From Bispira polyomma (taxonomy: Eukaryota), in the NCBI GenBank assembly GCA_965649765.1, contig OZ287752.1, positions 86,552,001 through 86,616,000 on the forward strand: a stretch of DNA of 64,000 nt, read 5' to 3'. Shown piece by piece: positions 9,091 to 57,876 of this stretch. Under the pieces are notes generated by a model that was not told the DNA's origin, did not search any database, and saw only the letters and a list, made by a program, of their open reading frames with translations. A program made the translations under genes and the position numbers. Position 1 is the first letter of the stretch, and each line of letters opens with the position of its first letter.

Positions 9091-11493
9091 AACATTGTGT
9101 CCTGCGTGGGGAACAGACAGGGCTTCAATGACTTCAATGACAAAGTTCAGACAATAAGGTGGTTGTCCCCAAACTGTATATACTATAATTTTATGCATTT
9201 GCAATTGAGTGAATGGATTATTTCACTGTCAATTTTAGTGTTTATGTAAAAGTTTCTCACTAGATATGTTAGTTGTTCATCCAAGATCTATGTTTCCAAA
9301 AAAAAACCCAACTCAAATCATCAGGCAAATCTTAATTTGAAAGTTACAAAATTCTTGTGAGATTCAACAGAAATTTATAAACGTTTTATTTCATAACTAA
9401 TAGAAGGTAAAATTTTAATTTATTTGAGAAAAGGGCATTTTCTTTTAATTCTGGCCACTGTTCTTAAATTAGACAATGCAATGTTTTTAAATTTTGGTTG
9501 GAGATATAATTTCAAATTCTGTTGTGTTTAAACATTTTCTGTCACAATATAATATCTATATTGCTGCTATAATGGCTTTTGCGACAGAAACCCAACATAC
9601 AAATTATGTTATTTTACTTAACGCCTAAAGATATTTTCACAAGTTTGCCCCCAAATGAATAAACTCAGTTTCACAGTCTCTGGTAAAGGTTTTAAAAATG
9701 TATATTTGGTAGTTTTTTTTATATATTTGCAATATGTATCATTCATAAATATGCATTCTGGACTTCTCGATTGGTTAATTGATTTGGTTGTTAGGCTTTA
9801 GAAGATGCCTTGCATCAATAAGAAGTGTTAAAAATGACAAATACAATCCATTTAATATTTGACATAAATTTTTTTCTCAAGTTTGCCTAGTGGCTCGAAT
9901 GACCAGTTAAAATGACGGTCATCTGTCACTGGGTCCTATCCTCAGTGACAGGCTAAATATTCTTGGGGATGTTCATAGGTTATCCTCTGAAGCCGGTGAA
10001 TGTTACAGCCAGGAAAGGGTTAATTGGTGCTCTGAATACCAGATGAAGGTAGATATATGCAAAGAATAAAAGTATTAATATAAATACAAATACAAACTTT
10101 TAAAGTTTACACTTGAATTGATTAATGCTGAAGTTAAATATCTATATGATGTGACAGATATAGTAACGGTAACTTTTGTAATACTGGGCAAACACAAAGG
10201 AAATTAACGTCATCTATTAGCCAAAAATTAAAATAACACAGAATTTACAAGCACCAATTATTGCATTTTGATACAGGAAAAGACTTGTCATCAATCAGGA
10301 TATTGCCTAAAAGATGAAACAACATTAATAAAAAACGCTGTATATATAATAACACAGATTTGACAAGCCTTCATCATTTTCAAGGACACTTGGAATCTGA
10401 TGTCAATATTACATGTCAACAACTACATTTACACTGCAAATCCATGTCATTTCCTCTAGCATTAATAAGATGCACATCGTTTTGGGGCCAAGGTTGACTG
10501 TGATGATATAGAGTGTTGTCTGCTTTTTACAGCACAATTCCTGCATTCTAATGAAAGATAAAAATGACAGAAAAATATGAGAATAATAAACAGTGCCAAG
10601 CAGTTAACAGTGAATTCAATAAATATAATGGTATAGGAATAATGAATTAAGATAGTACCTCACGCCTACTACCCTTTGTGTATTGTGACTAAGGACAAAA
10701 CTAAGGCTCTTTTATTAACGAATGTATTTCTCCCTGACATTGGTAATTATATTGTCTCTGTAAATCAGACAGGTTATCACAAAGTCTCACTGTGTGTTTT
10801 GTACAGTTTTAGGTTTCACTTTTCACTGGAGGTCAGGTTGTATACATATTGATTTATTTAGTCAGTATAATTACCTACAAACCTTCAACGCCACAAAATA
10901 AATAGTATCACATGTTAGGATGTAATTTTCTTGGATGAAATCTATCTGGGCTGACAGCATAAAGGATCTGCTCGTAAATTGTCATGGTTTCCAAAAATAC
11001 ATAATTAAACTGAGTTAAATCAAGTTTTTAGAAGGAACAGGGTTGCATTGTTTGCCTTTTGGTCTCAGCCTCTCACCCAGGAGGGGCTGGCAGGCCCAAT
11101 TTGCCCGGCCAGCCAAAAGAAAATTGACCATACAAAGCAAACAAGTTTGTTACACATTTGGGTTGTTTATTCATACATAAAAACACATGTTAGTAACTAC
11201 CACCCCTCAAGTTGAGGTTACCTTAATAATGTACCTGCTAAATATGATTACTCCTTAATCCTCCCACTTTAAGGTGGCCTTGACCTCAGCATGTTCTTTT
11301 ACATGTCACACTTAAGGTTGCCTAAAGCTGGGTTAAGGTATTGTTAAAGTGATAGCACCCTTGCATGTTGTTAGTTAAGGTTACCTTTCCCCTGAAGGGC
11401 CTCTACAGTCTATTTGTTATGCTAAACCTAGTTTATTTACACTACTATATAATTTGAAATAATGTATGATATAACTTGCCAAACCCAATGTAG

Positions 11494-12495
11494 TTATTTG
11501 TAGGTGTGTGCTGTGGTTAAGTGAGTGTGGAAGGCAGCTGCTACCAGTCCCGCTGTTTTGGGGGTTTTTACCAAGTAACGCCAGATGGCATCTGAACGCC
11601 AACCGCCATGTACCTTAATATGTTGGAGGTCAACGTGGTGGTCGAAAGCCCATGAAGCAGCCGACCTTCTAAGAGCATGGAAGCCATATTCAGCTGGGAT
11701 GAGGCCTATTTGCTGCACTAAGGCAGAGAAAACTTTACGTACGTGGAAGGCCGTAACCACGACGTGTGTACCTGACTGTGTGTATTGAAAAAGAGGGGTT
11801 TTGTTTGAACAGGGGCTGGGGGGGCAAATATTATGCAGGGCCTGTACTGGGCATAAAGGGGAACCTGGAAGGCTAGGGACCTGGACTACCTGCGCTTGCC
11901 CTGACACCTGCATGTTCTTTGCACACTTAGTTATTATGTGAGCCCCGGGCACCCCCCAAACTACGTCCCGTGGTGTGGGAAACCTTGAGGGGTGATAAAG
12001 AGTCGCTTTAGATGGAACCAAGGTTGCAAGTCTAAAGAACCCAAAGAACCCTAACAGTATGATGGCCTTGTGTACCTTAGCCCCTGGAAACTGGGAGACC
12101 AGGGATATTATCTGGATAAGTTTGTCTACAGAAAGCACTCCTTTTACTTTATATCTGAGGGGTGCATTATGAGACACCGCCTTGATCATGAGATGCACTT
12201 TCCTATGCTTTAGCACCTGCAAGGGGAAGTCGTACATCTGGAAGAAGTGGTTAAGTACAGCTAAGTAGCCTTGTAGTGTCTGTGATCTGAGTCCCTGCTG
12301 GGCCAAGAACTCGAGGAATAGTAAGACTGGATTAAGGTCGTGGGGGACCTGGATTTTAAGGTGAGACAAAAAGGCTATATACAGCCTGAATTTAGATTGG
12401 TAAGCCGAGGAGGTCCGGGGCCTGAAACCTGTAGCGATGCGTGAGTGGACATCTTGCAGCAAGCGTCTGGAAAGGCTGTTACCTACAAGAATCAA
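11494..12495 (-). CDS. Tyrosine recombinase of YR element 1 (probably the spliced 3' exon from 12482)
   Basis: FRPRTSSAY N-terminus; catalytic R in FFGFFRLATLVP; HALRR (H-x-x-R); GGWRSDAIWRY (W...Y nucleophile). The ORF starts at TTG, with no ATG at its 5' end. Confidence 0.93.
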   Translation of the reverse strand: MILVGNSLSRRLLQDVHSRIATGFRPRTSSAYQSKFRLYIAFLSHLKIQVPHDLNPVLLFLEFLAQQGLRSQTLQGYLAVLNHFFQMYDFPLQVLKHRKVHLMIKAVSHNAPLRYKVKGVLSVDKLIQIISLVSQFPGAKVHKAIILLGFFGFFRLATLVPSKATLYHPSRFPTPRDVVWGVPGAHIITKCAKNMQVSGQAQVVQVPSLPGSPLCPVQALHNICPPSPCSNKTPLFQYTQSGTHVVVTAFHVRKVFSALVQQIGLIPAEYGFHALRRSAASWAFDHHVDLQHIKVHGGWRSDAIWRYLVKTPKTAGLVAAAFHTHLTTAHTYK

Positions 12496-15085
12496 ATGTC
12501 ATAATTAGGTTTCGACCATTGAATGTCCACCGGGCACCAATTACATGTCTTCAGGTAAAGGACCTCGACCTTGTTTGTGCTGTAAAAATGTTGCCAGCTT
12601 GACAATATATCTGCATACGTATTGTTACTTCCATGAACGTGCTCCACTGAGATGTTTATATTAAACTTGGCCTGAATTAACCATAATGTCCTGGCACAAG
12701 CATTCAGAAAGACATCTTTACCTTTAGACTTATTAAGTATATGGACCACAGCCATATTGTCGCAATGGACACAAACGCTTGTATCCCTCCAACAATCCCC
12801 CCATAGTCTGAAGGCAATCAATATGTTACACATCTCGAAATGCACAATACCTAGGTGTTGTTTATACTCTTGGGGAATATCCACACTATATATTTGCCCT
12901 TCCCAATATGCCCCTAAACTTTGCAGAGAAGCATCTACAAACAATTGTTTTCTAGGGGAGTTCATTTGGTGAATGGCTGTAACCCCATTGTATTCTTGTA
13001 AAAATACACAAAACCAATTAATGTCTTTGTGAAATGAATCATTTAAGGGGACCTTAGTATGAGGGGGAGTGCCTCTTAACACCCCCAAAATCCTGTTAAC
13101 GAACAGCCTGGCAGGCTTAACACAACGGTGTATGTAGATCAATTTGCCTAGCAATTGTTGTAACTGTCTGCGTGTAGCCCAGGACTTGCGAGTCCATTGT
13201 TTACATAATTGGCTGATTTCGCTAAGTTTACTCGCTGGTATCGTCAGGACCCCCGTGCGTGCATTCACATTTATCCCCAAACATGTAACACTTTCTGAGG
13301 AGGAATCTACCTTTTCATAATTAATTGGGAGGCCTAATTCTGTGATTAAATTCTTGAGGGAGTTAAACCCAGCACTAGCCTTTCTGGGAGGCGCAACGCC
13401 CAAGAAATCGTCTAAATACGCGCACGTCCAGTGATCAAGTTGACGCAACAAGTGAGTGACGCAGTCTGACGTCATCTGACACGCGCTGACGCCCGAGGAG
13501 AGGCCAAAGGGCACACTTACGTCCACATAGTAATCCCCCTCCCCAAGGCCCCATAGTCATATGGATCACTCCTCAAATTACGATATGCTCGTTTAAGGTC
13601 GATTTTATATATAAGGGCTGTAGGGCCTATCAAGGCTATCTGGTCCACTAAATCGTCTATAGTTGGATAGGACAATTTAAACTCGACCTCATCAAACACG
13701 TCCTTGGGAATGCAACTGTTTACACTTTTGCCTTTAGGCCATAAGAGATCCACTATAATGCGTCTATTCCCGTCGGGCTTGGGGCGAGACATCAAAGGGG
13801 ATACATGTAATTTTGGAAATGGGCTGTCCGCCAAAGGACCTACAATAGCCTTAAACTGGATTTCAGTGCTAAGATACTTGGCTACATGCTGGGGATAATT
13901 AGAAGCTGAGGCATGATTCACTGTAGTTTTACTATATTGAAACTGGTCATAATCCAGGGAAAGGGGGAAGCCATATTGCAAGTATTCACAAACCACATTA
14001 AAGTCGTAACCCCTAAGGTAGGAACGCCAAGCCTTTATGTTCAATTGGGAGGGGACAGATACTCTGGCCCCCCTATAGTTAGGGCATTGTTCTACTTGGG
14101 CGAGGGCATGAGCTTGTTTAACCCAACCAACCATGTCAGTGTCACTCAACTCCCGGCCTTCAGTCCTGTGAGCTAAATACTGCACAGGCCAACTTGGAAC
14201 AAAGCCCCTCAGCCACTTACCCAACGTTTCCCCCGAGCTAATTGTGACCCCACCGTCTTTCATTGAATCATCCAATTGTAAGGGGCTTATACCTTCAGTA
14301 CACCTTAATTGGGTAACACTCGTGCCAAACTGCCCTTGCAATATAGCTGAGCTAATATTGACTGATTCTTGGAACAATTCAACGGTAGCAACACTTGAAC
14401 TTCCCCCTAACTGGTCTTGTGACCAAGTACAATCACTATCGTTCTCCTCAGAAGTTGACACGCTGGTTATTTTAGCACCCATACCTGCAGAGTAATGACT
14501 CTGGCAGGTGACTTCGTCGGTCAATGACATCTCACTTAAACTATGTGTTGTACTAATACTCCCACTACTACGTCTGCTAATACTTAAAGGACCATAGCCC
14601 TTGACCTGTTGTATGTTACTCTCATTAAGCCCCACACTTGTGGGGGTGAATTGTTTATATGCATCACTATCAATTTCGTCTTGCGCATTATCTACCGACA
14701 TTTCTGCTTCATTTACCTCGATTACCCATCTAGGGCCATCTCTACTACTACTATAATTAGTACTGTTACTGTCCATACTGTTCTTCATAACGCACTCGAC
14801 TACTACTTCACCACTACTATCAGTGTTATCCAGAATACCTTCAGTATCCTGGTTGTTAAAAAGATGCAACCTTTGCACTTGTGATTCGCCTCCCTCCACA
14901 ATCGGCTGTCTCTGTGTTGACCAGAAGTGGTCCTTACTACACCAATTACAGCTACACCTGCCTAAATGCTTATTTTCCCAGAAACTGCTGACTAAGATAC
15001 CTTTGGTGTCGAATTTTTTTGCTACTACTGTAGTGTTACAGCTGACAGGGACCACCGATTTAATACTTGGAGAGAACCGACCCAC
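12492..15085 (-). pseudogene. pol (reverse transcriptase + RNase H) of YR element 1, one frameshift at ~13525
   Basis: RT motifs SPLMSRPKPDGNRRIIVDL, KIDLKRAYRNL, VPFGLSS and YLDD. RNase H motifs FVDAS, HFEM, HCDNMAVV and HVHGSNNTYADILS. Split between ORFs 13517-15085 and 12492-13526. Confidence 0.92.
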
Positions 15086-15089
15086 CTGA

Positions 15090-16313
15090 TCAAACTCGCT
15101 GTTCAGCCTTGTCCTCAGTCGTGGTACCCTTACTTGTCTCCGCCTGCTTCCTCTTACACTTGGTTTCCGGGTGGTCGTAGTTTTTTCTTACTACTCGGTA
15201 ACAATAGCCACAGGAGTGCTTCTGCAACCGACCGCCTTCATAGTGGTCGTGTTCGAATTTGCAGCTGCCCTTGGCGAATTTTGCACACACATTTATTTTC
15301 CCCGAAACGTCTTTGTTACTGTTATAGTCCTTATGGCCTCCCAGCCACCCCGTGTTAGAACTTGCCTTAAGGGCTCTTTGTGTAAACCTTTGCCTTATAC
15401 GGTCGATCTCTACCGGGTCCTCCCAGGACACCATGCCTCTTTCCATTTCCGACAAAATGGACGCATGAGCCCTCTTGGCAGTAGGCCACGATAAATCCAC
15501 CGCATCCTGCATCAGATTATACTGATACTTCAGCATATTTTGCTTCACTACCTCCTTGGTCTCCAACTGCACACAACGGGAAAAACCCTGCACCCACTGG
15601 TATATAGAAAGTTCTTCATAGGTCGGCATTTTTAAAGTGTCTGAAAGCATACAATGCTCATGTGGCCATATTACAGGTACTTTTACCCGCTGATCCCCCA
15701 ATCGATAACGTCCCGACTTTAACTTAGAAGGTAGCATACCTGTAATTTCGTCCCTTGAAAAGTCCTGATATTGCCGCAGCCTTCTCTCTACTTCTTCCTG
15801 GATCGCTGAATCCGTTCTGAGGAACTCCATTGTGGGTAGTTTGTCAGTAGGGCGAGCCGGCTCGGCAGCATTTCGGCGGATGGGGGTCCTATGTTTCGGC
15901 GAGCTGTGAGCCGACGGCACCGGCTCCAGCGAGAAGGCGGAATCTCTCACCCGCTCCTGAGCATCTAGTCTCTCTTCAATTCCCGTGAACCTGTCCATCA
16001 TCCTATCCAGCTTCGTCAGGAGGGCCACGCTTGCCGCCTTCCGTTTAGCGCGTTTCTTGGGGGCCTTACCTCTCACGTCTGCTTGGGATTGAGACTCGTC
16101 CACCGTCGCTAGTGATACTTCTGCAGTTGCTGGCCTCTGTGTAGAAATGGAAGGAAGTCCCGGAGTCTGCGCCTGTTCGCCTTCTGATGATGAGGAGCGA
16201 TCCATAGCTCTCTTTTTTCTACATAAATTACCCAGTGGAGGGTTGTGCACAGAACGGCAAGCTGAACACCGCTCCTTGCGTTTACTCCTGGTGTTATAAG
16301 ATTTAGGTGGCAT
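15090..16313 (-). CDS. Gag-like ORF1 of YR element 1
   Basis: Likely ATG at 16313 (MPPKSYN). N-terminal C-x2-C-x3-H-x7-C knuckle; WPHE...YEELSIYQWVQGF core; C-terminal CCCH plus H-x-C-x2-C...H-x4-C zinc fingers, shared with elements 2 and 3. Confidence 0.85.
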   Translation of the reverse strand: MPPKSYNTRSKRKERCSACRSVHNPPLGNLCRKKRAMDRSSSSEGEQAQTPGLPSISTQRPATAEVSLATVDESQSQADVRGKAPKKRAKRKAASVALLTKLDRMMDRFTGIEERLDAQERVRDSAFSLEPVPSAHSSPKHRTPIRRNAAEPARPTDKLPTMEFLRTDSAIQEEVERRLRQYQDFSRDEITGMLPSKLKSGRYRLGDQRVKVPVIWPHEHCMLSDTLKMPTYEELSIYQWVQGFSRCVQLETKEVVKQNMLKYQYNLMQDAVDLSWPTAKRAHASILSEMERGMVSWEDPVEIDRIRQRFTQRALKASSNTGWLGGHKDYNSNKDVSGKINVCAKFAKGSCKFEHDHYEGGRLQKHSCGYCYRVVRKNYDHPETKCKRKQAETSKGTTTEDKAEQRV

Positions 16314-16898
16314 TTCCAGACAATGATCACCCACTACTATCACATATGACACACATACACCACTTTGCACAATTACACACGTAACACAATAAGATGACTA
16401 AAAACGTTAAAAGTAGTAAATGTACTGTGTTTCTTAGTTTAAAATCCCCACAGAGCTTTTCATGCATTCTGTTCAAAAGCCTTTCCAAGAATGAGGGTTT
16501 TTGGACACTTGTGCACAAGCTTGGGCATTTTGGCGGGAAACCCAAGTTGTCACTTCAATTATGATTAATTGGTGAATGCTTCGACACTAGGTGAGAGGCT
16601 GAAATCTAACGCTGGCATTCCATAATGCACGCGTTCACTACATGCTTTGCTTTTTGGAATTATTTTACCGAAATAAAGTTTAATTTATTTTTGCTCTTAT
16701 CCTTAAAAAGAGACTTTTTGTTTCCTCTGTCAAACCCATCAAGAGGGCTGTAGCATTTTCAATCACTCCTCCCCAAGTTATGGAATAGTTGAGCTCAGAT
16801 CACTTGAAACACTTTCTGAGTTAAGGGAAAAACTTAAAACCTATTTTGTTCAAACTTACCTCCTTGTATATCCGTACATTATTCCTTACAATCTGGCT

Positions 16899-28150: not shown

Positions 28151-29390
28151 GGGGTACAATTAGAAAGGGGAACTTTTTTTACAGATAATATGGTATATTC
28201 GGCAGAGAGTTAAAGACAAATATTGCAAATAAACGAGTAATTTCTCCTGATTGTAACAGATCTGGCAAGTCAATATGCCACATGTAAACACACCTCATTC
28301 TATTGCTATTCCATAAGGTCTTACATTTTTTCAGTGTTTTACAAACAATCAGATACAAACCTTCCACTAATAGAATCACATGCAAAGATGCCATTTAACA
28401 AACAAAATTAACAAACTTGTGTAAATTGTCATAACATCCGCAGTAAATAATCAACCCGGGACTTTGTAATCCCATATCAAATATATGCGAAAAACAGTTA
28501 TTTTAAAATTATTTCACAAAGCAGCATCAATTAATAATGTAAATACTTGAGTATTGCATGCGAATATAGGAACAGAATGATCTATCAATGATGTGAATCT
28601 ATATCAATATAATTTGAAGGGTATTCCCCCATAAAATTATTTACACCAAAATTATTTCCTGTGTGATTAATTTGTTTGTGTTAGAAATGTGTATTAAAGT
28701 AATTATTGATTTAGCACATGCTCGAAGTTTGCACCTATATATCTGATAATGATGTGCACACATCAAAATGTTTTTGTTTTATTTCGAAGTGAGTAATAAG
28801 TCCCTGTGGGCTGGGAATGACAATCAATTTTTACTGTTAATTGTAACAGGAAATGGATATACTAGTCACAGTCCCCCACACTCCCAAGTCAAGAATAACA
28901 AATCCATGAGGGTATATACTTTTATTATATAAAATGTATATGTAAAAATGTAAAATATATAATCTAAACTACTGCCTATATACATTTCAATTTTTAAATT
29001 TTAATACAACTATAAAGGTTACATTGTTTTAAGGCTTTAAGTTGAGATCACGTATAAAATTCTTAAATTAACAATTTTTCCAAACGTAAGTATTTTGAGT
29101 TTAAGTTTGCACTTAAACTTGTTTTAATTTATGGTGCTCTTAACTTAAGTTAAGAGTACACTTAAACCCAAATTGTAAGGTGACCTTAACTTGATGAGTC
29201 ACCAAGGTGAAGTTAAACTGAACCAGTTTAAGATTACCCTAACCCGCAAAGGGGTTCTTATGACTTTAAGATATGAATATTTAAAAACCCCGTTGACCTC
29301 AACTTTCACAATTGTTTTAATTTCACATGTGTTACTATAAACAGAAAACCTCAAACCCAACTAGTATGAGTAGAAAACATTTTGTAGGAT

Positions 29391-30371
29391 TTAACAAAGT
29401 CTGGAAGGTGGTAGCCACTTCTGTAGTATTTGTGTTTGATTGTATATATGTATACACGCAATCCGACGTCCAGGTGCCATGCTCCTTATTTGCTGTATGG
29501 GCACCTGCACCTGATACGCCAGAGTGGCACCTGAATGCCGGAAAGCATGAAAAGTGAAAAAATTTGATGGATATCCCAACTTTTCATTAAATTTTGCCAA
29601 ATTCTTTCTTACCCTAGAGTCAGTGACTACCTGACGACCAGTAGTTGTCAAACATTGAAATAAGGGCTCATTCTTTCCTGGCTTGTACAATCTGAATAAT
29701 TTTTTTAACGCCTCATACGGACATATTGACAAAACTTTAAGTCTGGGGAGAGTAATTATTTGAACTTTATCTCTGTTCTGCAATGTTTTTGACCACTTTA
29801 ATAATCGTTTGACCGTGTCTTTTTCAAAAAATACATCACCACCAGTAAAGTGACGTGATGCGTCAAAATCTTTGACCGAATGCGGAACCAGATTGGACAA
29901 CCTGAAGAACCCAAAGAAACCTGTGAGGAAAATGGCTTTAAATACATCTGAATTGCTTAAGTAGGCACACTGCCTTATTAACTGTTGTAGGGTATCAATG
30001 TCTAATACATTTCTGTTGACCACAGCATGTTTTCTGTTTAACTTTAGAGACTTTAAAAAATACTTGATTTTGGGGTGATCAAAAAGATGAAATGGCAGAT
30101 CATATATTACACACATTGCTTTTAATGCAGATATATAATTGGCTATCATGTGCACAGATACCTTGTTTATTACCAGATATTCTAGAAAAGACATGACATT
30201 TTTCACCTCTAGAGCTTCTAATGCTAGCCCTGTACATAAGCAAAATGCGACAAATGTCCTGAATAAACCTTGATAACAGGATCTTGTCTTGGGTCTAAAA
30301 GCTGTGTGTAGCCTGTGATTTGCTCCTGACTGCAAAGCCCTAAGTGCTTCAGTGCCTACAAAACAAAGCAT
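29391..30371 (-). pseudogene. Tyrosine recombinase of YR element 2 (frameshift near C-terminus)
   Basis: AFRPKTRSCY, FFGFFRLSNLVP and FTFHAFRHSGAT motifs; the HGTWTSD segment is shifted out of frame at ~29480. Confidence 0.92.
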
Positions 30372-30424
30372 AGTATCTTCACGTAACTAAAACGACATGC
30401 TTAGTTACTAAAGTGTTATTTTAT

Positions 30425-32889: not shown

Positions 32890-33839
32890 TTTTTTGTTTC
32901 ATTTTTCTTAGAAAACAGACAGTCTTTTTCTGGGTGGGACAAAATGCGCCCTATTGTCACACAGTGAGAACAGATATGTCTGTGCAACTTTCCCCCAATT
33001 TCATGATCTTTACTGTGTTGACACGTTCCTTTTTGAAAGAATTTACAAAACCAGGGCATGAGCTGCTTTTGCGCCTTGCCATGTGAAATCAGTGGCATCT
33101 TCCATTAGGTCAGCCATGTACATTACCACTTTTTCTTTTTCTCACTGTCTGACTCTTGTATGATATTTTACAAAACCCTTGCACCCACTGAGATAGAGAC
33201 AATTGGTCGTAGGTTACTCTGTTTCTAGTGACGCCCCCTAATATTTCCTCATGAGGCCAGGCTACTTTATTCTTCACTATTACCTCTACTGGGCCGCCTC
33301 TTTTTGACTTTATTTTACTTGCATTATCAATACCTGTGTTTTGACTGTCTTTCTCTAGTTCCCTTAGTCTACTGTCTACACGACGCTGGAATGAAGCAGA
33401 GCTTCTCAATGTTGACAAACTTGGCAATACTTGTTCCTCATCTGAGGACTCACTATCAGAACTATCACTTTTAATTGACTTTTTATTTGACACAGTTCTA
33501 CTTAACTTTCCACTTGCTTCCTTTCCCTTCTGACGACTTGTGCTGGACTCCTCGACCCTGTCTTTCACTGCCTCTAGTCTCGCGTTTACCTTCTGTAGCT
33601 GCAACAAGATCTGCCTCTGGATACTGTCCTGGTCATCGCCGCTCGCTTTCTCTGCCAACTTCTTGCTGCCTCGGTAATCGCCCCCCATGATTACTAACTG
33701 AAGTGTCCTTCACTACACGGGTTTCCTCCATGGTGACCTCACTATCTGTCTCAACATGTATGTCTCTATTACATTTTTTTCCCGTCGGTGGAATATGTCT
33801 GTTGCCGCATTTTTTACACAATGCTTTCAACTGTGGCAT
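32883..33839 (-). pseudogene. gag of YR element 2 (frameshifted)
   Basis: MPQLKALCKKCGNRHIPPTGKKC knuckle; VAWPHE...YDQLSLSQWVQGF; CKFFQKGTCQHSKDH...HICSHC...HPEKDC; ends TKNE*. Confidence 0.85.
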
Positions 33840-36422: not shown

Positions 36423-36660
36423 ATACACCTTGTCACTACATTCTACAATATATTTACATTATACAACTATTGTTATACATTTTTGCTTTAATATAATTTA
36501 AATTTACGAACACCTTAACTTTCGTGTATAGTTTAAGGCTACCTTAGTAACACTTACTTTTAAAACTAAGGTTACAACAGTGTTTATAAATAATTTAACT
36601 TTGAAGTGACCTTACCGACAGTAAGGCTACCTACTTTTGCACCAACAGTGCTTACAAATA
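36423..36660 (+). repeat. Orphan remnant resembling the 3' (B) repeat of the YR elements
   Basis: TTCTACAATATATTTACATTATACAACT resembles the start of B1/B2. It is followed by TTAAGGCTACCTTAG, TGAAGTGACCTTAC and GTAAGGCTACCTAC. Confidence 0.5.
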
Positions 36661-43276: not shown

Positions 43277-43599
43277 TATATAACAATTTGTGAAAAAAAA
43301 ATATATTCAGGAAACTTTTTAAAGTTTAAAATGTATAAATCAAAACACTAGAAATTCCTTTAAACAGGTCATATCACAAAGGCCAGATTCAATGGTAGAT
43401 AAAACAAATGCTAAAGTTTGTAAACCTGTGGTCTAGAGCAAGTGCCCGACCAATAATCTATGAAAATATTGGAATGTATTGATCTTTTAAAAATAAAAAT
43501 ATATATTGTTGGAAGCATTCAAATCATACAGAGGTTGTTACTAACTTACTAATGTATCAAGTAACACTGCCATTTTAAACTTATATAGATTAAATTGTA

Positions 43600-43800
43600 A
43601 CTGTGCAAGGTAGACCCACATGGGCTAGCTAGGTCAGTGCTGCCAGTAATTTGTTAAGTCCAGGGTCTTGACCCCTAAGCTAATTGGCGAACTCTGCACT
43701 AATTGACCCTTGTCTTCCCGCCGTTTTTGTGGGGATATCACTTTTAATATTGAAGTCGAAGGAGCAACACCGCCATTTTTATTTTTCATTTTATTTTGTT
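43600..43800 (+). repeat. Split direct repeat A1
   Basis: Near-identical to 49007-49207 (GGTAGACCC...GCTAGCTAGGTCAGTGCT...TTTATTTTGTT). Confidence 0.95.
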
Positions 43801-44105: not shown

Positions 44106-45099
44106 ATGGCTCCGAGAAAACATATAATTGCCTTAAATGTGGCACAAATCACCAGAAACCTATAGATAGTAACTGTAAATTAGCAGCTAGACTGCTTACT
44201 GACGATGAGGAAGTGCTGAACTCTGCTTCGACTAGTGAAAGTCAAAGTCCTGGTGACATTAACATTCAGATACTAAACGAACTACGTGCTCTGAGCGGTC
44301 GAAAGACCAAAGTGAAACGCCAGGTAAATCACAGTCAGCATAGAGCCCAGACTTCTCCAAGTCGGGGAACACCTGTAACAACCAGTCCTGCACCTCGACC
44401 TGCTGCACTACTGCCTGATCCGGAAGACGTCTTAGTACCCACCATGGACACACTTAGGTCTTCACAGAGTCTACAGACTTCCGTGGACACACGTCTCAAG
44501 GAGCTAGCTATGATAAATATGACAGGTACGTTCAAGTCCCAGAGGGGGCTAGTGATACGGTCTGGGTGAGCAAACAGGTCCCTTGGCCACAGAACTTTAT
44601 TTTAGGTGGACATAGTAAATCTAGATTCTCATATGACTCATTAACAATGCCCCAGTGAGTCGCTGGTTTCTCAAACATCATTAGAGAAGAAAGTAATGTT
44701 GCAACCAGGAATCTAATGTTAGAGTACTTATCGGACCTCATGAAGGACGCTCATGACTTATCCTGGAGGACGGCTAAGGGAAGTCATCCAGTTCTATCCT
44801 GTAAAATGGAAGAGGGGAAGGTGTCATGGGACGAGTCCCATAAACTAGATAGAATTAGGCGGGCTCATGCCCAGCGGGTAATTAATTCCAGCCAAAACTC
44901 TAGCCAAAAAGGTCCATCCAGGAAAAGTCATGACAAGGGTACTCCATGTAAGTTCTTCCAAAAGGGTACTTGCCCCCAAAAAGGGGATCATGAAACTAAG
45001 GGAACCACTTATCTGCATGTGTGTAGTAATTGTATGTTGAATAGGCGGTCTTTTCCCCACCCTGCAAAAGATTGCAGAAAAAATGCAAAAGACGAATAA
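44106..45099 (+). pseudogene. gag of YR element 3 (frameshifts and stop)
   Basis: ATG at 44106 and CLKCGTNHQKPIDSNC knuckle after a 1-bp slip; VPWPQN...YDSLTMPQ*VAGF; CKFFQKGTCPQKGDH...HVCSNC...HPAKDC. Confidence 0.85.
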
Positions 45100-47570
45100 G
45101 GCACTGCAACAATGCAGTGCCCTTATCAAATCCTAGTGATCAATGTTATCTAGATAAAAGCACCAGGTGGATTGAAAAAATATTTTTCAATGGTAGAACA
45201 ATGGACAATGAACTTTTTACTGAGAGGTATAGTGAAAAACAATTTCATGGTAGAACTGTATATAACACTACTGCTAAGGTTCAAGCTAGTATGCACTGGA
45301 GTACAGACTGGGCTCGGTTCAAAAAGAAATCCTACGTGGACATTTTAAAAAATGGTAAAACAAAACAAAGTCAGGAAAAACACATGTCCTCCAGTACACA
45401 CCGCACAAAAACTAACCAAACTGTGAAATTTCCAATGTGTAAAGTAACAATGAAAAACAGTACTGTTTTACAAAAAAGTATTAATCATGCATGTTTTGCC
45501 AACCTTTCAGGAAAGTCTGACTGCTCTGTCAGCAAAGAGGTAACCAAGGTGGTTGTTAGGGGTAAATCACGTACCATTTTCCCTTCCCCTAGAGTAGGTG
45601 TGAAACCTGATAGTATGGGAAAATCAATTAAAACTTGCAGCAATGGGGATGGGGGAAAAGGTGTGAAAATACACAACCATACAAAACCTCCTTTCTTTGT
45701 TTCACACCTGCGAGAAGGTGCCAAAAATTTTGTCCCCACATACAATAGGTTTTTCCCTCTTTCTGTAGGTCATGGTGATATTGACAATAGGATCATTCCC
45801 AAAACAAAACCTCTTGATACTGGGAGAGAAACAAAAGGCCATAGCAAAGGCAAAAGTAAGGGTTCACCCACAACTTCCATAGGTAAAACAAAAACATTGG
45901 AGGCTGATAAATATGATTTAGAACTCCAACTGAGACCCAAACACAGGGACCTTATAAGGGAGGCCCATAACGTCCCCATATTCCAACAGTGGAATTCACA
46001 GACCACAGACAAGTATGGTTTTGTTCGTTTAGGTGACATTGAGGTTCCTGAGTCAGATAAAAGGGTTACATCACAGGCTACATTAATTCAGTTACATACT
46101 ATCATTAGTGCAGCAAAGTGTCCCAATTTTATAGACCCTCAAATTGAGATCAAGTCATAACTTAAACCTGACTTCTGGGAAAAATACCTCAAAAAATATA
46201 TTTATTGGGATTCCCAACTACCCTTCTTAGTCAGATATGGTTTCCCCATGGACTTTAAGGGGGATAGTCCCCTCTCACACGTAGAACAAAACCATAGCTC
46301 AGCGGTAAACTTCCCTAATGACATTGAGGCCTATTTAAAAGAGGAAATTAAATTTGGGGCTTTGTTAGGGCCGTTTGACAATGCTCCCATACAGAACCTC
46401 CACGTGTCCCCATTTATGACAAAAGAAAAACCGGGGCTCCTCATAGGCGTGTTATTATTGACCTAAGCTATCCACATGGTGAGTCAGTTAACACTGCTTT
46501 AGCAAAGGACAGATATTTAAACACACCCTTTGTCCTCACACTTCCCACAATTGACACAGTAACCAGTAAAATTTGGCGCCTGGGTCGTGGTACTCACATA
46601 TACAAGATTGACGCCAGTCGAGCATTCCGTCACGTAAAGATGGAACCGCCTGACTATCACCTGCTAGGCCTCAAATTTGACAAATACTATGTAGACGTTC
46701 ATTTGATACATTGCACCACTTGCTACAAGAACTAGGTTTTGCAATAAGTGAAAAGAAACTAGTATATCCTGGTACAAAAGTTACATGTCTCGGGGTCTTG
46801 GTAAACACGGAAAATTTCACTGTATCACTGCCCCAAGAAAAACTAGCAGAAACCATCTCCCTAGTTAAAGATTGGCAGAAAAAACAAAGTTGTACAAAAC
46901 GGGAACTCCAATCACTTCTAGGCAAGTTACTTTATGTTTCAAAGTGTGTCAGAGTATCACGTGTCTTCATAAACCGTATGTTAGACATCCTTAGAGTAGC
47001 AGGTAATAGTAAAAAAGTCACACTCACAACTGAATTTAGACAAGATATCAATTGGTTCAAAAATTTCTTCCTGTCTTTAATGGCACAGCATTTTTTTACC
47101 ATGACCCAACCACTGACTGCATCCAACTGGATGCTTGTCTTGAAGGACTCAGGGGCAGGTGTAATGACCAAGTATATGAGTATTCCCTTCCCCTGGGGTA
47201 CCTTGACCTTACTATTGTGCATTTAGAAATGCTCAACATACTTGTAGCCATACGGGTCTGGAAGTCTCTATGGGCAGGCAAAAGACTGGTAATTCAGTGT
47301 GATAATGCAGCAGTCGTAGCAATCTTGGGTTCGAGTAAGACTAAAGATTTAACATTGGCAGCCATAGCCAGAAACATCTTTATGGAAATAGCTGCTGTCG
47401 ACATCAGCTTAAGAATCATTCACATTCTAGGTAGAGATAATCATGTGGCGGGTCTTTTGTCCAGATGGCAACTGACCCAGGATAGAAACAAAAAACTCAC
47501 AAACTTAGTGCCTAATCAGCAGTGGGTGGAAGTGAGTAATAGTATGTTGAAAATAGATTGGTCTATCTAA
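45072..47570 (+). pseudogene. pol (RT + RNase H) of YR element 3; several lesions, YxDD segment deleted near 46700
   Basis: HVSPFMTKEKPG, KIDASRAFRHV, ELQSLLGKLLYVSKCV, LDACLEG, QCDNAAVV and HILGRDNHVAGLLSRW motifs. Confidence 0.9.
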
Positions 47571-47576
47571 TTGTAG

Positions 47577-48525
47577 ATGTGCCCTCTCACCTCAGACAGA
47601 TAGCCATGCAAGCAACACACAGGGCTCACCAGGCTTTCAGACCCTCCACTGATAAAGCCTATTCAAACATGTTTAGAACATAAATACCAATCATATTTTC
47701 CCACTTGTATTGTTATCATTTTTGGAAGTACTAGTGGTTAAACACGCCTCTGCTTCCTCTATTTCCAACTATCTTTCTGCAATCAAAGCCAAGATGGCGC
47801 TATTTGGCCTAAATGTCTTTGTTTTCTCTGACCCTAGAATCAGGTATTACCAAAAATCACTCTTGCTCAATAGCCCTTTCAGGGCCAAAATAAAAACAAT
47901 TATTGACATACCCCTCCTTACCCAAATCATTCAATTCTGTGACACAATGTATATGGGCCAGGTTTTTAAGGCACTGTATTTGATAGCATTTTTTCCTTCC
48001 TAAGGATCTCCAACCTGGTCCCCTATGCAGTTTCACAGTTTTCTCCCCTACTTCAATTGGCCAGGGGTGACATTATTTTCAACCCTACTACCCCTGCATC
48101 CACCTCATAAGTGGACTAAGACACTGCAGTCCAAAAATGTAGCCAAAGTACTAAAAATTCCTACCTTACTTTCCTCTCCCCTCTGTCAAGTCTCAGCAGT
48201 CAGGGCTTTGCTAGCCATCACACCAGGCCATAGAGACTCCCCTCTTTTCCAGTTTAAAAAGAACAGTACCTGGATGCCATTGACTGATACCGAGTTCGAG
48301 CTAACCGAACAAGCATACTCCAGCGCTTGCGATTACAACATTCCAATATTACCTTCCATACCTTCCGGTGTTCTGGTGCCACCTCGCTTTCAACAGTAAT
48401 GTCCCTATTCAAGAGATACAGAGTCATGGCACCTGGACGTCAGATTTCGTCTGGAAATACATAACCCAAGACCATAATGCCTCCGAAGAGTTGGCCCTGG
48501 CCTTTCACATTCCACTACTACCTAG
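47577..48525 (+). pseudogene. Tyrosine recombinase of YR element 3 (frameshifted)
   Basis: AFRPSTDKAY, FLRISNLVP, KWTKTLQ, ITFHTFRCSGAT and HGTWTSDFVWKY distributed across frames. Confidence 0.9.
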
Positions 48526-48532
48526 TTGGGCT

Positions 48533-49010
48533 TTGGGGTTGTTCATTTACATTTATTCTATACTATATATTATACAACTGTTAAATATCTAAATATTAAA
48601 TGTTTGGGGCCACCTTACCACTCTACTTTTAAACCATTAACTTAATTCGCAACTCTTTATCAAATTTAAAGGGTAACCTTAACAAAAAGTTAAGGTCACC
48701 TTAAACTCAAAATCTTACACACTTTAAGGTGGCCTCATTGTTAAAGTTAAGGCTACCTTACTTTTTCAAAATTTTATGGTCACCTTAAGTTATTCATAAT
48801 TTAAGGTCACCTTACTTATTAACTTAACTTCCCGGTGCCTTAATTTAAGGTCACCTTATCTCATCCACTTAAACTCTTAGTGCTAGGGTAGCCCCTATAC
48901 TCAGTATATGAATAAATGTTAGAGATTAATACAGTCATTAAAACATATCCCCACTTTGCCTCTTTTTATTGTGTTCCAAATCCATTCCCAACTGCACTGG
49001 TAGGGCACTG
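48533..49010 (+). repeat. Split direct repeat B1 (contains palindrome array and AATAAA at 48911)
   Basis: Near-identical to 49639-50116. Confidence 0.95.
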
Positions 49011-49207
49011 TGTGGGGTAGACCCGCAGGGGCTAGCTAGGTCAGTGCTTCCAGTAATTTGTTAAGTCCAGGGTCTTGACCCCTAAGCTAATTGGCGAACT
49101 CTGCACTAATTGACCCTTGTCTTCCCGCCGTTTTCGTGGGGATATCACTTTTAATATTGAAGTCGAAAGGGCAACACCGCCATTTTTATTTTTTATTTTA
49201 TTTTGTT
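49007..49207 (+). repeat. Split direct repeat A2
   Basis: Near-identical to A1; abuts B1 through the shared ACTG. Confidence 0.95.
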
Positions 49208-49638
49208 CCCACCCACTCCCCATCAGCAACTATTGATAGAGTATTCTGTTATCACTCATTGTGTAACGTGTATTTTTGGTGTGTACTCTAGTGTGTTGAA
49301 TATTATTTGTGTAACATAACCATGATGTCATATTAACTCTAAGTTGTCTAGTTTCAGACACAAGATTGAGAATGGAAGGGCAAAACTACTTCCTGGACAA
49401 GACATGGCTGCACAGCAAAAAGCAACACATGAACTTGTCCTCAGATCTATTCGATTTCTCGATTTAATTGTGCGATGTCTATATGAATGTATCTGGAAAC
49501 TATGGTTATTGTATATGCTAGGGGTGTAAGGTCTGAGTGAGTTAAGATGCTGCTTTCCTTGGACTCTTGATATGGATTAGTGTATTCTTAGGCTTTTAGC
49601 TAGAACCATGATTTTAATTATATTATTTTTATCCTCTA

Positions 49639-50116
49639 TTGGGGTTGTTTATTTGCATTTTTATTCTATACTATATATTATACAACTGCTAAATATCTAA
49701 ATAATGTTTGGGGCCACCTTACCACTCTACTTTTAAACCATTAACTTAATTCGCAACTCTTTATCAAATCTTAAGGGTAACCTTAACAAAAAGTTAAGGT
49801 CACCTTCAAGTCAAAATCTTACACACTTTAAGGTAGCCTCATTGTTAAAGTTAAGGCTACCTTACTTTTTCAAAATTTTATGGTCACCTTAAGTTGTTCA
49901 TAATTTAAGGTCACCTTACTTATTAACTTAACTTCCCGGTGCCTTAATTTAAGGTCACCTTATCTCATCCACTTAAACTCTTGGTGCTTGGGTGGCCCCT
50001 CTACTCAGTATATGAATAAAAGTTAGAGATTAATATAGTCATTAAAACTAATATCCCCACTTTGCCTCTTTTTATTGTGTTCCAAATCCATTCCCAACTG
50101 CACTGGTACGGCACTG
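49639..50116 (+). repeat. Split direct repeat B2
   Basis: Near-identical to B1; ends GGTACGGCACTG. Confidence 0.95.
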
Positions 50117-51090: not shown

Positions 51091-51766
51091 ATTTTCGCGA
51101 CTGACTAGCCATGCTACTTTGTGGCAGTGATGAAGACATGTATATTCGATAATGTGTTCACCTCACTTAGTTTCTGACAAGGAAAAAGAAAATGACAAGA
51201 AATTAACCATGCTGTGTTAAACTCATATGTTGATATTATGTTTTGGATCAATAATTGCAGCCACATGTATTTGTTTGTAACAATAAAAAGTATGACAAAT
51301 ATTGCGTCAGTTTTGTATCAGTGCATTATCATTTACCTTAAAACTTTACCACTACACTTTAAAGAAATTAAATTGGAACTACATTTTATTGTATTTGGAA
51401 TTTGTATTACTAAAAATACTTTATATGCTAACAATTTTTTTTTGAAACGGCCCCTCAAAATGGCCTGACACAGGTTTTTTGGTTCCTGCTATATTTGGCA
51501 AATATTATAGTTATATAATGTCAGTTATAAACAATACTTCTGAAATATTGTCGTGATAACTACATGGAACATGAAGATATGAATTATTTTGGTTTACGTG
51601 CTATATTTTAGTTTTAATGGAACTTTTGAAAATCATGCATTCCTGTGAAGGACATTGATATGCATGATACATATCGTGTGGTTAATATTGACATATTGGT
51701 AAAAACAGAGAAGTTTAGTGTTTGGTTTGGTTTTTTTCATACTTCTATAAATGATGTTTTCAAGTA

Positions 51767-53167
51767 ATGGTTAAGCAAAAAAGAAAACACAGAAAGAGTG
51801 GAAACACCCCAGATAATAAAAATAGCCCAGAAGAGAAAAAACAAAGAACTTTGGATAACTTTGTAAAAGGGAATATGGCTAAAGCAGGTGAAGAAATGCT
51901 TCATGAACTGAGTGATTTTGGTGAACAAGATTCACCAACTTCAACTGGTGGTAAGACAGATAGTGAATTAATGCTAAAGGAAATACTACATATGGTTAAA
52001 GCTAACAACAGTAAACTTGATATCTTAACAAAAACAGTAGACAAGGTTGTAGCTGATGTCAAAAAGCAAGGTAGAGAAATAGAAAATCTGAAAGAGTCTG
52101 TATCGTTTACCCAAACAGAAATTAACACATTAAAAAAAGATCTGAGAGATGTAAAACAAAAAACTGTGAGTGACGCAAAAGTCACATGCTTGGAATCGGT
52201 CATGAAGCAACAATACAAAGCGATGCAAGAAAAGTTAACCAACATGGAAGCGTACTCGAGAAGAAACAATTTAATCTTTGAAGGAATCTCTGAAACAGAG
52301 AATGAAAACTGTTTTCACAAGGTTATACAACTCTTACAACAGGATCTAAAAATAGAAAATGCTGGAGAACGGATAAAGTTGGTAAATGCCCACCGAACAG
52401 GCATGAAGGGTCTTCATAGGCCAAGACCTATATTGGCCAGATTCCACTATTACCCAGATGTAGTTGAAGTGTATAAACGGAGATTTGGACTGAAATATGG
52501 ACAAGGATTTACAAAATATTTTATACTACAGGATTATCCGGATAAGATGGTGAGAGTTAGGCAACAGCTTAATCTGGTTTTAAAAGAGGCAAGAAGAGTG
52601 CAGATGAAGGCATATATGTTCAAAGATAAATTGTGTGTTAACGGAAGAGTCCTCGGATTACAAGACTGCTATCATCTGCCAGGAGTTGATGTTCACAGGA
52701 TTGGGATGAGACATTCTGCTGATAGTGTTTTGTTTCATGGTCGCTTCAACCCACTCAGTAACTTCTACCCAACCAACTTTACAGTTGATGGTATCAGTTA
52801 CAGCTGTTCAGAGCAGTACTACCAGTACCAGCATGCTCTGTTCTGTGGTCAGACCCGTATGGCCTCTAATATCCTGTTTGAAGAAGATCCAGTAGAGATG
52901 AAGAAGTTGGCAGCCAGACTGGAGAAGGAAGAATGGCAACAAAAGTTTGCAGTACAGGCGATGACAACGTGTTTGAGGGCTAAATTCGAACAAAATAAAC
53001 AATTACTCAAATTCCTAAAGGATACTGGTGAAAGACAGTTGATAGAGTGCAACAAATATGACTCGTTCTGGGGAAGTGGTGTCAGCATTACAGACAAGAA
53101 TGCACATAGAGGAAAAGGACAAAATAAACTTGGCCAGTGCTTAATGCAAGTTAGAAGCGAACTGTAA
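51767..53167 (+). CDS. LINE ORF1p (coiled coil + RRM + CTD) fused to C-terminal NADAR/YbiA (DUF1768) domain
   Basis: aa ~60-160 coiled coil. SRRNNLIFEGISE, AHRTG, RPRPILARF, QDYP and KLCVNG mark the L1/Tx1 ORF1 fold. aa ~321-466 carry the NADAR signature LSNFYP..F.VDG..Y..SEQYYQ...W...M...LRAKFEQN...L..TG...LIE...DSFWG.G...GQNKLGQCLMQVRSEL. The ORF is uninterrupted. Confidence 0.92.
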   Translation: MVKQKRKHRKSGNTPDNKNSPEEKKQRTLDNFVKGNMAKAGEEMLHELSDFGEQDSPTSTGGKTDSELMLKEILHMVKANNSKLDILTKTVDKVVADVKKQGREIENLKESVSFTQTEINTLKKDLRDVKQKTVSDAKVTCLESVMKQQYKAMQEKLTNMEAYSRRNNLIFEGISETENENCFHKVIQLLQQDLKIENAGERIKLVNAHRTGMKGLHRPRPILARFHYYPDVVEVYKRRFGLKYGQGFTKYFILQDYPDKMVRVRQQLNLVLKEARRVQMKAYMFKDKLCVNGRVLGLQDCYHLPGVDVHRIGMRHSADSVLFHGRFNPLSNFYPTNFTVDGISYSCSEQYYQYQHALFCGQTRMASNILFEEDPVEMKKLAARLEKEEWQQKFAVQAMTTCLRAKFEQNKQLLKFLKDTGERQLIECNKYDSFWGSGVSITDKNAHRGKGQNKLGQCLMQVRSEL

Positions 53168-54087: not shown

Positions 54088-57000
54088 ATGATGATGACCA
54101 AGTTAAAAATTTGTAGTATGAATGTCAGAGGTATAACTGATAAAACAAAACGAAATGATCTTTTCAACTGGCTCAAACAAAAACACTTTCGATATATTGT
54201 TTACAAGATATCCATGTAGGCCCTGGTAAAGAACTGCTATTAAAACAGGAGTGGGGTGGACAGGTCCTAACTAATGTGGTCGCATCTGATTCTAGAGGGG
54301 TAGCCATATTGTTTGAAAATAAAATTGATTTGAAAATTTCAGATGTTTATAAAGATGATAATGGCAATGTTTTAATGGTTAAGATTGATATAGAAAATAC
54401 AATCACATTTTGGCTAGTAGTGATATACGGCCCAAATAGGGATTCTCCAGAATTCTATAATAATATTAATACTTTACTACAAGATAAAACTGAGGTCCCA
54501 GTTATATTGTGTGGAGACTGGAATTTGGTCCTAAATTTTGAAAAAGATACTTTGGGATATAAAAAAGAAAATAATCCAAAGTCCAGGGGAAAATTACAAA
54601 ATATTATAGATATTTATGAGCTTGTTGACACATGGAGATCTGTGAATCCTGAAGCACAGTGTTATACATGGACAAGTGCCAAAAAACCACTGCAAATGGC
54701 TAGATTAGATTATTTTTTGGTATCATCTGACATTCATTCTAAAATTAGTAAACATATTATATCTTTTGCATATAGAAGTGATCATTCGTTTGTGGGAATT
54801 GAAATTGATATGCAAGAGTTAACCAGAGGTAAAGGATTTTGGAAATTTAATGTGTCTTTGTTATATGACCCAGATTATGTCAAAAAAGTTAAAAATGAAT
54901 TAAAAAATATAGAATTAGATTTTTGCAAAACGGATGGTCACAATACATGTATCTGTTTAAAACAAATGTTATTGGAAGTAATAAAGTTATGAATAAGGGG
55001 AATAACAATTAGATATGCAGCCTTTAAAAAGAAAAATAATTTACAAAAGGAAAAAGATTTAGAGATTAAAATTACGGCACTAGAAGCTAAGCTTGCACAA
55101 AGAAACTATCCAGACCAAAATATTCAACATGAAGATATGGTATGCCTTGAAAAATATAAGGAAGATTTAAAAGTAACTAGACAGCCAAAATTAACAGCCT
55201 TAATGATGAGATCAAGGGCACAAATTTATGAGTATAATGAAAAGCCATCGAATTATTTTTGTAATTTGGAGAAACGAAATTATTTAAATAAATTAGTCTC
55301 AAAATTAGACAATGGGAACAAAATTTTAACTGATCAAGGTTTAATACTAGAAGAAATAAAAAATTATTATAATGACTTATATGACAGTAAAATTTGTCCA
55401 GACACTTCACCACATTTAAAAATATTTTTAAATGAGAGGAATATTCAGTGTCTAAGCAATGAGGAAATAAATCATTGTGAAGGATTAATAACCGAACTTG
55501 AGATAAAAAGAGTCCTAAAAGACATGAAAAATGGGAAAACCCCAGGTTCAGATGGTTTTCCATCGGAGTTTTATAAATTTTTTTGGACTGACCTCAATAA
55601 ATTTGTTATGGACAGTATAAATGAAGCCTTTGAAAAGAACGAGTTATCTATAACTCAGAAACAAGGGATCATTACTTTAGTGCCTAAACCAGGTAAATCA
55701 AGACTATCTCTCAAGAATTGGCGTCCCATTACATTGGTGAATGTTGACTATAAGCTTATATCAGGTGTACTTGCTTTGCGAATGAAAAAAATTCTACCCA
55801 AAATTATAAGTAACGCTCAAAAAGGCTTCTTGAAAAATCGATATATTGGCGAAAATATAAGGACTACATATGATATTATCCATTTTCTCAAATTAAAACA
55901 AAGAACTGGCTTACTTTTGCTCATAGATTTTGAAAAAGCCTTCGACTCTCTAGAATGGGCTTACATCAGAAAAGTTCTGTATGCATATAAGTTTGGACAA
56001 AATTTTATAAAATGGTATAACCTTCTCTATAATAATTCCTGTAGCTGTGTTGTTAATAATGGCTTCTTCTCTGAATTTTTTTAATTTACACAGAGGGTGT
56101 CGACAAGGGGATCCGCTTAGCCCTTATTTGTTCATACTAGCTATAGAACCACTCTCTTTAGAGATTAAGCAAAACAAATCCATAAAAGGTGTTAATGTGG
56201 GCAATATAATAAGCAAGATAGGTCACTATGCAGATGACACCTTCCTTCTGTTAGATAAAAGTGAATCCTCATTACAGGAAGCTATTCAAACTTTTCAGAG
56301 ATTTTATCTGTGCTCTGGTCTAAAAATAAATGTAGATAAAACACAATGTGTATGTCTTGGTAATAACACAGCTGCAACAACAATAAGTGGGGATTACAAT
56401 TTAGTATGGACAGAACATTTTAATCTTCTTGGAATTAAGTTTGATAGAAATTTGAATAAAATGGTTGAAATTAATTTTAAAGATGCTATCACTAAGATCG
56501 AAAAACTTTTATTTCAGTATAAGAAATATCATTTATCCCTCATTGGAAAAGTCACTGTTATCAAAACACTTGTTCTTCCCAAATTAGTTTATCCACTCAC
56601 TGTTCTTCCAGCTCCCTCAGAAGATATATTTCGAAACTTACAAAAAATTATTAAAGATTTTATTTGGAAGGATAATGTCCGCATATCAACATCGCAACTA
56701 GAGAAAACAGTGTTACAGGGTGGGTTAAAATTACCTAATATTAGGGTTTTTCATCGTACATTGAAACTATCATGGATAAAGAGATTAATAGAGTCTGATG
56801 GCACATGGCAACACTTATTTGGACACACTATTGGTAGTATGACAAAAAAAAGCTACTGGGAATTAGACACAACCTCACTCAACAAAAATTTGGATTTAAC
56901 TGGAAACAAATTCTGGTACGAAGTTACCAAATATTGGATTGAATATAAGCAAAATTTTGAAACAGATTTAGATTATAGATGCTTCCCCTTGTGGAACACA

Positions 57001-57876
57001 TATTTTATTCAAAATAAAAACTTAATTTATAAGCAACAGTATTTTCAAAGTAAAGGTCTAAGCTATATTAATGACCTGATGCATAAAGATGGAGGCTTTT
57101 TGGGTTACAATGATTTTTGTACCAAATTTAATACAAATATCAATTTTGTCGACTTCTATAGCCTTATGCATTCAATACCGAAGGAATGGAAAATGTGTTG
57201 TATCACAAAGTTAGGTCAGGTGAAACATAAAATTTTAGAAAATGTATTAAAAATGCCAAAAGTTTGCAACGGTGTATATTGGAAAGTTATTGGAAACATT
57301 AAAGTAGAAAGGTCACATATTTCAAAATGGTCAGCTATCCTTAATAAAACACTTGACCCTGAAAGCATGAGTGGTTTTTATAATACAAATTATAGATGCA
57401 CGATGGAAACTAGAATGAGGGATTTTCAGTATAAAATTATCCAAAGAGTTCTTCCTACAAATAGGTATTTGAAGCTTTGCAAGTTAAAAGATACAGACAA
57501 CTGTTATTTCTGTAATAGTGAAGTTGAAACTATAGAACATTTGTTTTGGTAGTGCTCGAAGATTAATTCCTTTTGGTACTTAATAGCAGAAAGGCTAAAG
57601 TCCGCTTTCGATATACAGAACATACTAAAGTCCGAAAACATACTACTAGGATTTACAGGACATAGCAATAACAGACTTATAAATCATGTATTGAATATTG
57701 TTAAAAGATATATTTATGTAACCAAATGTAAAGAAGAAGTTCTCAGTGTAACGGCTGCCATTAACTACATCAAATTTTATTATAATATCGAAAAAATAAT
57801 TATTTCTAGAAAGGGTGGCAGTAAAGAAATTTTAGAGGAAAAGTGGAAACCATTGTCAACATTTTTAAAACACTAA
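54088..57876 (+). pseudogene. LINE ORF2 (APE endonuclease, RT, C-terminal zinc knuckle); 2 frameshifts (~54190, ~56080) and 2 stops (54990, 57550)
   Basis: APE motifs SMNVRG, CLQDIH, IYGPN, CGDWN, RLDYF and SDHS. RT motifs KTPGSDG, WRPITLVNVDYK, DFEKAFDS, GCRQGDPLSP and YADD. C-terminal CYFC...ETIEHLFW*C. Confidence 0.95.

Follow-up and report, generated by a model that had tools for sequence, protein, structure and literature searches.

This locus raises the question of why a 15-bp palindrome should recur just downstream of the tyrosine recombinase (YR) gene in three retroelements of Bispira polyomma, and what kind of molecule would read it. The elements lie in one stretch of 64,000 nucleotides, referred to below as the window. 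An earlier note on this DNA had pointed out the palindromes, and all the sites it quoted are found where it placed them. Its figure of about eight copies per repeat agrees with a search by TTAAGGYNRCCTTAA at up to three mismatches for both B repeats of element 3, and the same motif does occur in elements 1 and 2 (Table 1). The claimed distance of ~100–400 bp to the recombination junction corresponds to site centres lying about 150–400 bp from the end of B. The spacers, described as short and unique, are short indeed (7–29 nt in B1) but not foreign, as adjacent sites are alike as direct repeats. A CRISPR-like repeat–spacer array was considered and rejected, the spacers being inherited across copies and neither regular nor acquired.

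For the pattern TTAAGGTNACCTTAA at up to three mismatches, 100 shuffled versions of the window give 7.1 +/- 2.6 matches, with 13 as the largest count; the window itself contains 34. Around a centre that reads Y-N-R, symmetry continues in weaker form out to about +/-12. A fourth cluster, absent from the earlier note, has no match in the library of B repeats.

The elements themselves are of a known kind, namely Ngaro retrotransposons, as seen from the repeat layout, the order of open reading frames (gag, RT/RNase H, YR) and the lack of a methyltransferase match (the 22 window ORFs scanned include none with a Dam match at E <= 0.01). Self-comparison of element 3 gives the order A1-ORFs-B1-A2-C-B2 with split direct repeats, a layout also present in other families (L154, L156, L157, L164, L165, L175, L182); elements 1 and 2 retain one B each. 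In the accessible text of PMC9210276 and PMC8547959, the layout of Ngaro (order DIRS) is A1-ORFs-B1-A2-B2. The likeness to the elements described there and in PMC3783388, as far as these texts go, covers the split repeats, the gag-RT/RH-YR order, the missing methyltransferase match and the solo or collapsed forms. The elements of this animal differ from those described by an extra C segment between A2 and B2, the array within B, a CCHC finger at the N-terminus of Gag and gag–YR splice signals; the string "palindrom" occurs nowhere in the main texts of the three papers. In the families examined, B is built in a constant way: a TTGGG-type head, an insert filled by the array, AATAAA, a CCC(A)A-type tail and a terminal ACTG. 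Among the full copies inspected, the distance from the last site to the B end is 131–207 bp, often near 150–160.

Table 1. Positions of the Ngaro elements, their repeats and the palindrome arrays in the window
Feature	Position	Strand	Basis or remark
Single B repeat, element 1	11066..11479	-	5 sites at 11212-11389
YR ORF, element 1	11494..12498	-	Start without nearby Met; phase-1 acceptor signal near 12483
Gag ORF, element 1	15090..16397	-	Finger 16221-16268; donor signal near 15740
A1 of element 1	16453..16642	-	Matches A2 of family copy L088
Single B repeat, element 2	28869..29358	-	3 sites at 29129-29242; 5' edge approximate
YR ORF, element 2	29391..30386	-	
Splice signals, element 2	Donor 33334, acceptor 30356	-	
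Gag N-terminal CCHC finger, element 2	33771..33818	-	
Fourth cluster, 3-4 degenerate sites	36504..36635	+	No adjoining YR; likely B fragment
A1 repeat, left end of element 3	43600..43800	+	Self-comparison
Gag-like ORF, element 3, broken	44117..45081	+	N-terminal CCHC finger 44129-44176
Phase-1 splice donor signal in gag, element 3	near 44526	+	
RT/RNase H remnants, element 3, frameshifted	45087..47567	+	
Tyrosine recombinase remnant, element 3, frameshifted	47522..48526	+	
B1 repeat, element 3	48533..49010	+	TTGGGG head, array, AATAAA, CCCCA tail, end in ACTG junction core
Array in B1, 8 sites	48604..48859	+	Motif search, TTAAGGYNRCCTTAA, <=3 mismatches
AATAAA 3' of array, likely poly(A) signal	48911..48916	+	Same order in other families
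A2 repeat, element 3	49007..49207	+	Self-comparison; 95% identical to A1
C segment, unique, between A2 and B2	49208..49638	+	Common to family copies
B2 repeat, right end of element 3	49639..50116	+	Self-comparison; 95% identical to B1
Array in B2, 8 sites	49708..49963	+	Motif search

Apart from these elements, the window contains a tandem satellite of 4.7 kb (58276-63036; period near 37 bp), two intronless ORFs, one with a NADAR domain (51755-53167, +) and one with a glycosyltransferase family 92 domain (42032-43306, -), as well as LINE-type endonuclease and RT remnants (54159-57552, +; 18841-19368, +; 27462-28178, -). Elsewhere in the genome, many copies of the element-3 family are collapsed, ending at B1, or solo, with A-C-B only; such loci include L003, L004, L011, L013, L015 and others, together with L017, L020 and L025. 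Two of the nine truncated or solo copies tested, L052 (about 3378-3830) and L069 (about 3146-4938), are 5'-truncated Ngaro copies lying between long stretches of host DNA duplicated in direct orientation (47 and 83 bp; 96% identity), which may stem from one-ended joining by YR finished by repair. The YR-like matches at L190 and L194 lack Ngaro features, are possibly of Crypton type and have no array.

Genome-wide, the motif follows the recombinase gene: behind the YR of 66 non-redundant elements, 124 sites (at most two mismatches) fall within 500 bp, against 16 in the preceding 6 kb, and a second peak further downstream corresponds to B2. Exact sites number 4088 in the genome, where Markov models predict 28–65, the pattern written backwards gives 13, and the same arms with an R-N-Y centre give 26, which is the chance level. 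A sample of 40 stretches, the first listed places on contig C1, comprises nine places directly behind a YR remnant, ten that match the B library (L073 and L075 marginally, L083 possibly through flanking DNA), 12 other arrays of at least three sites, three pairs and six singles; 67 of 80 control windows are free of any site. None of the 40 places belongs to a recognisably different class of element, except for a captured piece of B: three B-like places represent one such piece inside a TA-flanked inverted-repeat element. Most sites thus derive from Ngaro B repeats, with a minority left without assignment.

The TA-flanked MITE with short terminal inverted repeats that carries the Ngaro B piece and its array was found at L055, L064, L076 and L216-L235; it is present in at least 40 copies at 97–99% identity, mostly inside a larger repeat. 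L048, L067 and L068 have perfect sites in DNA for which a genome search of limited sensitivity gave a single occurrence; these sites may be old B remnants below that sensitivity. The array at L048:3330-4045 has 8–9 sites at a spacing of ~90 bp, a single genomic occurrence and no nearby YR, and would be either an old remnant or a host element. L051:3150-3400 is a 28-bp unit in tandem with one site per unit. As for other hosts, no array was found in 15 distant metagenome loci (best segments 23–45% identical), 13 of which have no site at up to three mismatches, and the search of viral contigs found nothing.

The matrix of the site was derived from 191 sites of 118 B regions in 53 clusters, 11 loci without an anchor and two non-Ngaro YR loci having been left out of 131. 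It is two-fold symmetric, with weaker symmetry at +/-10 and +/-12. Motif positions are 96.2% identical across 25 family loci and spacers 90.3%; between families, the values are 82% and 70% for 13 pairs, the masks being drawn on one member per pair, which favours the motif, and the copies being related. There is a weak preference for an 11-bp spacing: of 181 pairs, 9 are at 11 and 9 at 22. The symmetry, the specificity of the centre, and the lack of both G-U bias and covariation make the motif look like a double-stranded site for a symmetric, that is, dimeric, protein and not like an RNA hairpin. Of the two possibilities raised earlier, a conserved cis-element for a dimeric protein thus agrees with the concentration of sites behind YR, their symmetry and their better preservation than that of the spacers. 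RNA hairpins find no backing in covariation or wobble bias.

The latter possibility deserves a closer account. Each site might form a 6-bp stem with a Y-N-A loop in RNA or single-stranded cDNA, or the whole B might be a branched domain that Gag would recognise for packaging or strand transfer. Several observations lean this way. The B of element 3 folds at z = -6.8 with AAUAAA inside the stem, and fold prediction pairs the AATAAA of B1 with the B head; head–tail pairing is modestly family-specific (371/10000 permutations); and DIRS-1 cDNA is single-stranded according to the accessible part of PMC7192593. The sites are also polar, the A/C to G/T counts at the centre changing along the array from 63:19 in its first third to 45:22 in the middle and 25:31 in the last, and A at +1 is stricter than T at -1 (108 and 93 of 119). 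Double changes within the same pair exceed expectation at up to three mismatches (38 vs 17), but only 11 of the 38 are complementary, no more than their expected share. Flank pairs 8–12 do not covary in 119 sites (score 182 vs 199 permuted), and G-U is not preferred over A-C on either strand (core counts of 30 vs 32 at up to two mismatches and 56 vs 68 at up to three). Neighbouring or best-partner sites are no more complementary to each other than to sites of other families, and pairing of the first site with the last proved null or weak. Excess folding does not differ between the strands, the sense strand being favoured by 18 of 40, and palindromes fold well by construction. Taken with the chance-level frequency of the same arms around R-N-Y, these results make an RNA or cDNA structure decidedly unlikely as the function of the array.

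The B repeat that holds the sites is another matter, since its two ends may pair as RNA. For the head of B (TTGGG or TGAGG), most families have a complementary tail just 3' of AATAAA (CCCAA or CCTCA), at 48527-48953 in the window, and one clade shows a matched change. By energy, the head–tail duplex is not significantly better than with swapped partners (377/5000 permutations; 40/53 clusters). A possible role for such a stem would be RNA control of read-through at the poly(A) signal of B1.

If the site is a duplex one, a known DNA-binding protein might be sought for it, and the nuclear-receptor half-site noticed earlier invites monomeric receptors of the ERR or NR5A type, binding on both strands. 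The commonest left half, TTAAGGTCA, is an instance of the ERR element TNAAGGTCA, in which C is the commonest base at N, and the TTA extension is among those tested (PMC10484738, accessible text); in mouse embryos, Nr5a2 has been placed on a SINE subtype (10.1101/2022.05.17.492379, in the part available). The fit is nevertheless poor, and a standard receptor site can hardly be maintained: C stands at the position preferred by ERR in 1 of 240 half-sites, and TNAAGGTCA is present in only 28 of 120 sites. Unlike the element in the text of PMC10484738, the array word is strictly palindromic, has T and not C at position 2 and leaves the central base free. A monomer gives no reason for strict symmetry, and the half-sites overlap by 3 bp, unlike IR3. 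Receptors of this type are very unlikely readers of the array.

It might also be supposed that nothing reads the array at all, and that an ancestral palindrome was amplified by slippage and carried along as a neutral by-product. Adjacent sites do share their flanks as direct repeats (4.4 of 12 positions, vs 3.6 when read as complements), and both the 28-bp tandem run and the capture by the MITE inflate the number of sites. Against this, three deep lineages whose B repeats cannot be aligned have the word unchanged, and it is better preserved than the spacers, so that a purely neutral origin appears highly improbable.

The three lineages emerge from a quick YR tree of proteins from this genome and from ENA, in which 82 of 119 rows were kept after collapse at 90%. 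Arrays are present in the lineage of element 1, in that of elements 2 and 3 and in L294-L297, with array-less lineages and ENA proteins not belonging to the set standing between them; the YRs of elements 1 and 2 are 29% identical. The earlier note would have given up its proposal if the motif were absent from active family members, and this is found in part: several young multi-copy families with B1 and B2 98–99% identical are array-less, and the array-less set includes a group of near-identical YR copies. The array is thus not needed by all Ngaro elements and is no universal accessory site of the YR. The number of sites per B varies from 0 to 10. In a short-finger clade (L260-L264, L292, L299), the B inserts contain a repeat, TAAGTGCA, and 0–1 canonical site.

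In array-bearing families with an intact 5' end, Gag begins with a finger of the form C-x2-C-x3-H-x2-P-x-[GD]-x2-C. One clade has lost this finger, another has one longer by five residues, and L301/L302 add a further finger-less lineage; all three are array-less. Counted by rows, at least three sites are present in 30 of 37 with a short finger, 0 of 8 with a long one, 0 of 5 without a finger and 4 of 16 unassigned, 17 of the labels being set by hand. Counted by lineage, however, arrays occur in 3 of 5 with a short finger and 0 of 3 with a lost or lengthened one (P about 0.18), and the association of array and finger is for this reason a lead only. Two short-finger lineages (L261/262/292/299 and L304) have 0–1 site. 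The clades have little of the finger in common beyond C, C, H, P, G and C; the other residues vary widely among array-bearing clades and are acidic in that of element 1. The anchor motif could be located in 36 rows, and by hand count gag has a phase-1 donor in 33 of them; the start of YR has a phase-1 acceptor in 48 of 66 rows. These signals would join the finger to the recombinase in a predicted product composed of the finger, a long helix and YR; the helix, at residues 60–95 behind the finger, comes from a low-confidence predicted model (pTM 0.35). Neither the finger nor Gag hits a Pfam family over the cut-off, Gag has no Atlas match, and the low-confidence model has no fold match.

These data give some ground for regarding the array as arm-type sites of the element's own recombinase, that is, of the Gag N-terminus (CCHC finger and predicted long helix) spliced to YR, although such a reading must be called unlikely. 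A finger paired by a coiled coil would bind palindromes 130–400 bp from the ACTG crossover, and the bound array would help to build the integration complex, by analogy with the N-terminal domain of lambda Int. The accessible text of PMC4880445 describes lambda integrase as having an N-terminal domain on a YR core and repeated non-core sites away from the crossover, with five arm sites on both arms and IHF, Xis and Fis sites between them. The likeness would lie in a small N-terminal domain joined to the YR core, here predicted by splicing, and in distant repeated sites; in contrast to lambda as presented in that source, there are 0–10 palindromes, as putative sites, on one side only. The splice signals, the modelled helix, the row counts, the third lineage (L301/L302) and the placing of the last site agree with this proposal, which accounts for the association with the finger as well as for how far the sites lie from the crossover. 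On the other side stand the lineage count, the two short-finger lineages nearly devoid of sites, the freely varying number and spacing of sites and the finger's lack of a Pfam match. Moreover, the DNA word stays unchanged while the surface residues of the finger are diverse. A two-headed recombinase with an arm-type array, lambda-like regulated integration and the joint loss of array and finger in three lineages is accordingly a doubtful, if attractive, proposition.

The reading favoured here, at somewhat less than even confidence, is that the array is an enhancer-like cluster of duplex sites for one dimeric factor of the host, probably a transcription factor. It is favoured because the word is constant across diverse fingers and recombinases, the number of sites is free and active families exist without the array. 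B would act as an enhancer-like module, its sites being bound by the host protein, and would occupy a U3-like place, 5' of both the poly(A) signal and the joint between B and A. From their downstream position in an integrated copy, the two B repeats would stimulate an internal promoter in A1; the proposed circular intermediate would have B immediately 5' of A. That the arrays grow by short tandem duplication and hold 0–10 sites suits a regulatory cassette open to tuning, and not a recombination site of fixed form. LTR elements have enhancer repeats in U3. The array resembles these as a cluster of like sites, variable in number, that precedes the poly(A) signal of a terminal repeat; it differs from them in that the repeat is split, so B stands downstream of the ORFs in an integrated copy.

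Some facts speak against a host factor. No known factor has been matched to the site, TNAAGGTCA being present in only 28 of 120. Other elements would be expected to borrow such sites, and none of the 40 sampled places is in another class. The polarity of the sites is not required by an orientation-free enhancer. In addition, arrays are lacking from all three lineages with a lost or lengthened finger, an indication that the reader is a protein of the element itself. The evidence for the host factor and that for the arm sites would both be accommodated by a mixed form, with the finger touching a host protein seated on the array.

In the literature searched, with subscription papers (including the original description of Ngaro) and supplements outside its scope, the array is not described, and no description of a cis-signal of Ngaro was found; the string AAGGTCACCTT turns up in papers on unrelated subjects, judging by their titles. 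New here are the array in the B repeat of a known kind of element and its confinement to lineages with a short-CCHC-finger Gag. Priming and integration of DIRS-order elements are still largely a model, according to the accessible part of PMC7192593. The tools now to hand are a defined 15-bp site, an inactive control with an R-N-Y centre, array-less families and a candidate protein of the element, so that one binding experiment could separate the readings. If a host factor reads the array, the elements would have spread about 4000 perfect sites for it through a 1-Gb genome, some of them via a MITE. If the Gag finger does, this would be a eukaryotic retrotransposon that uses the arm-site logic of phage integrases.
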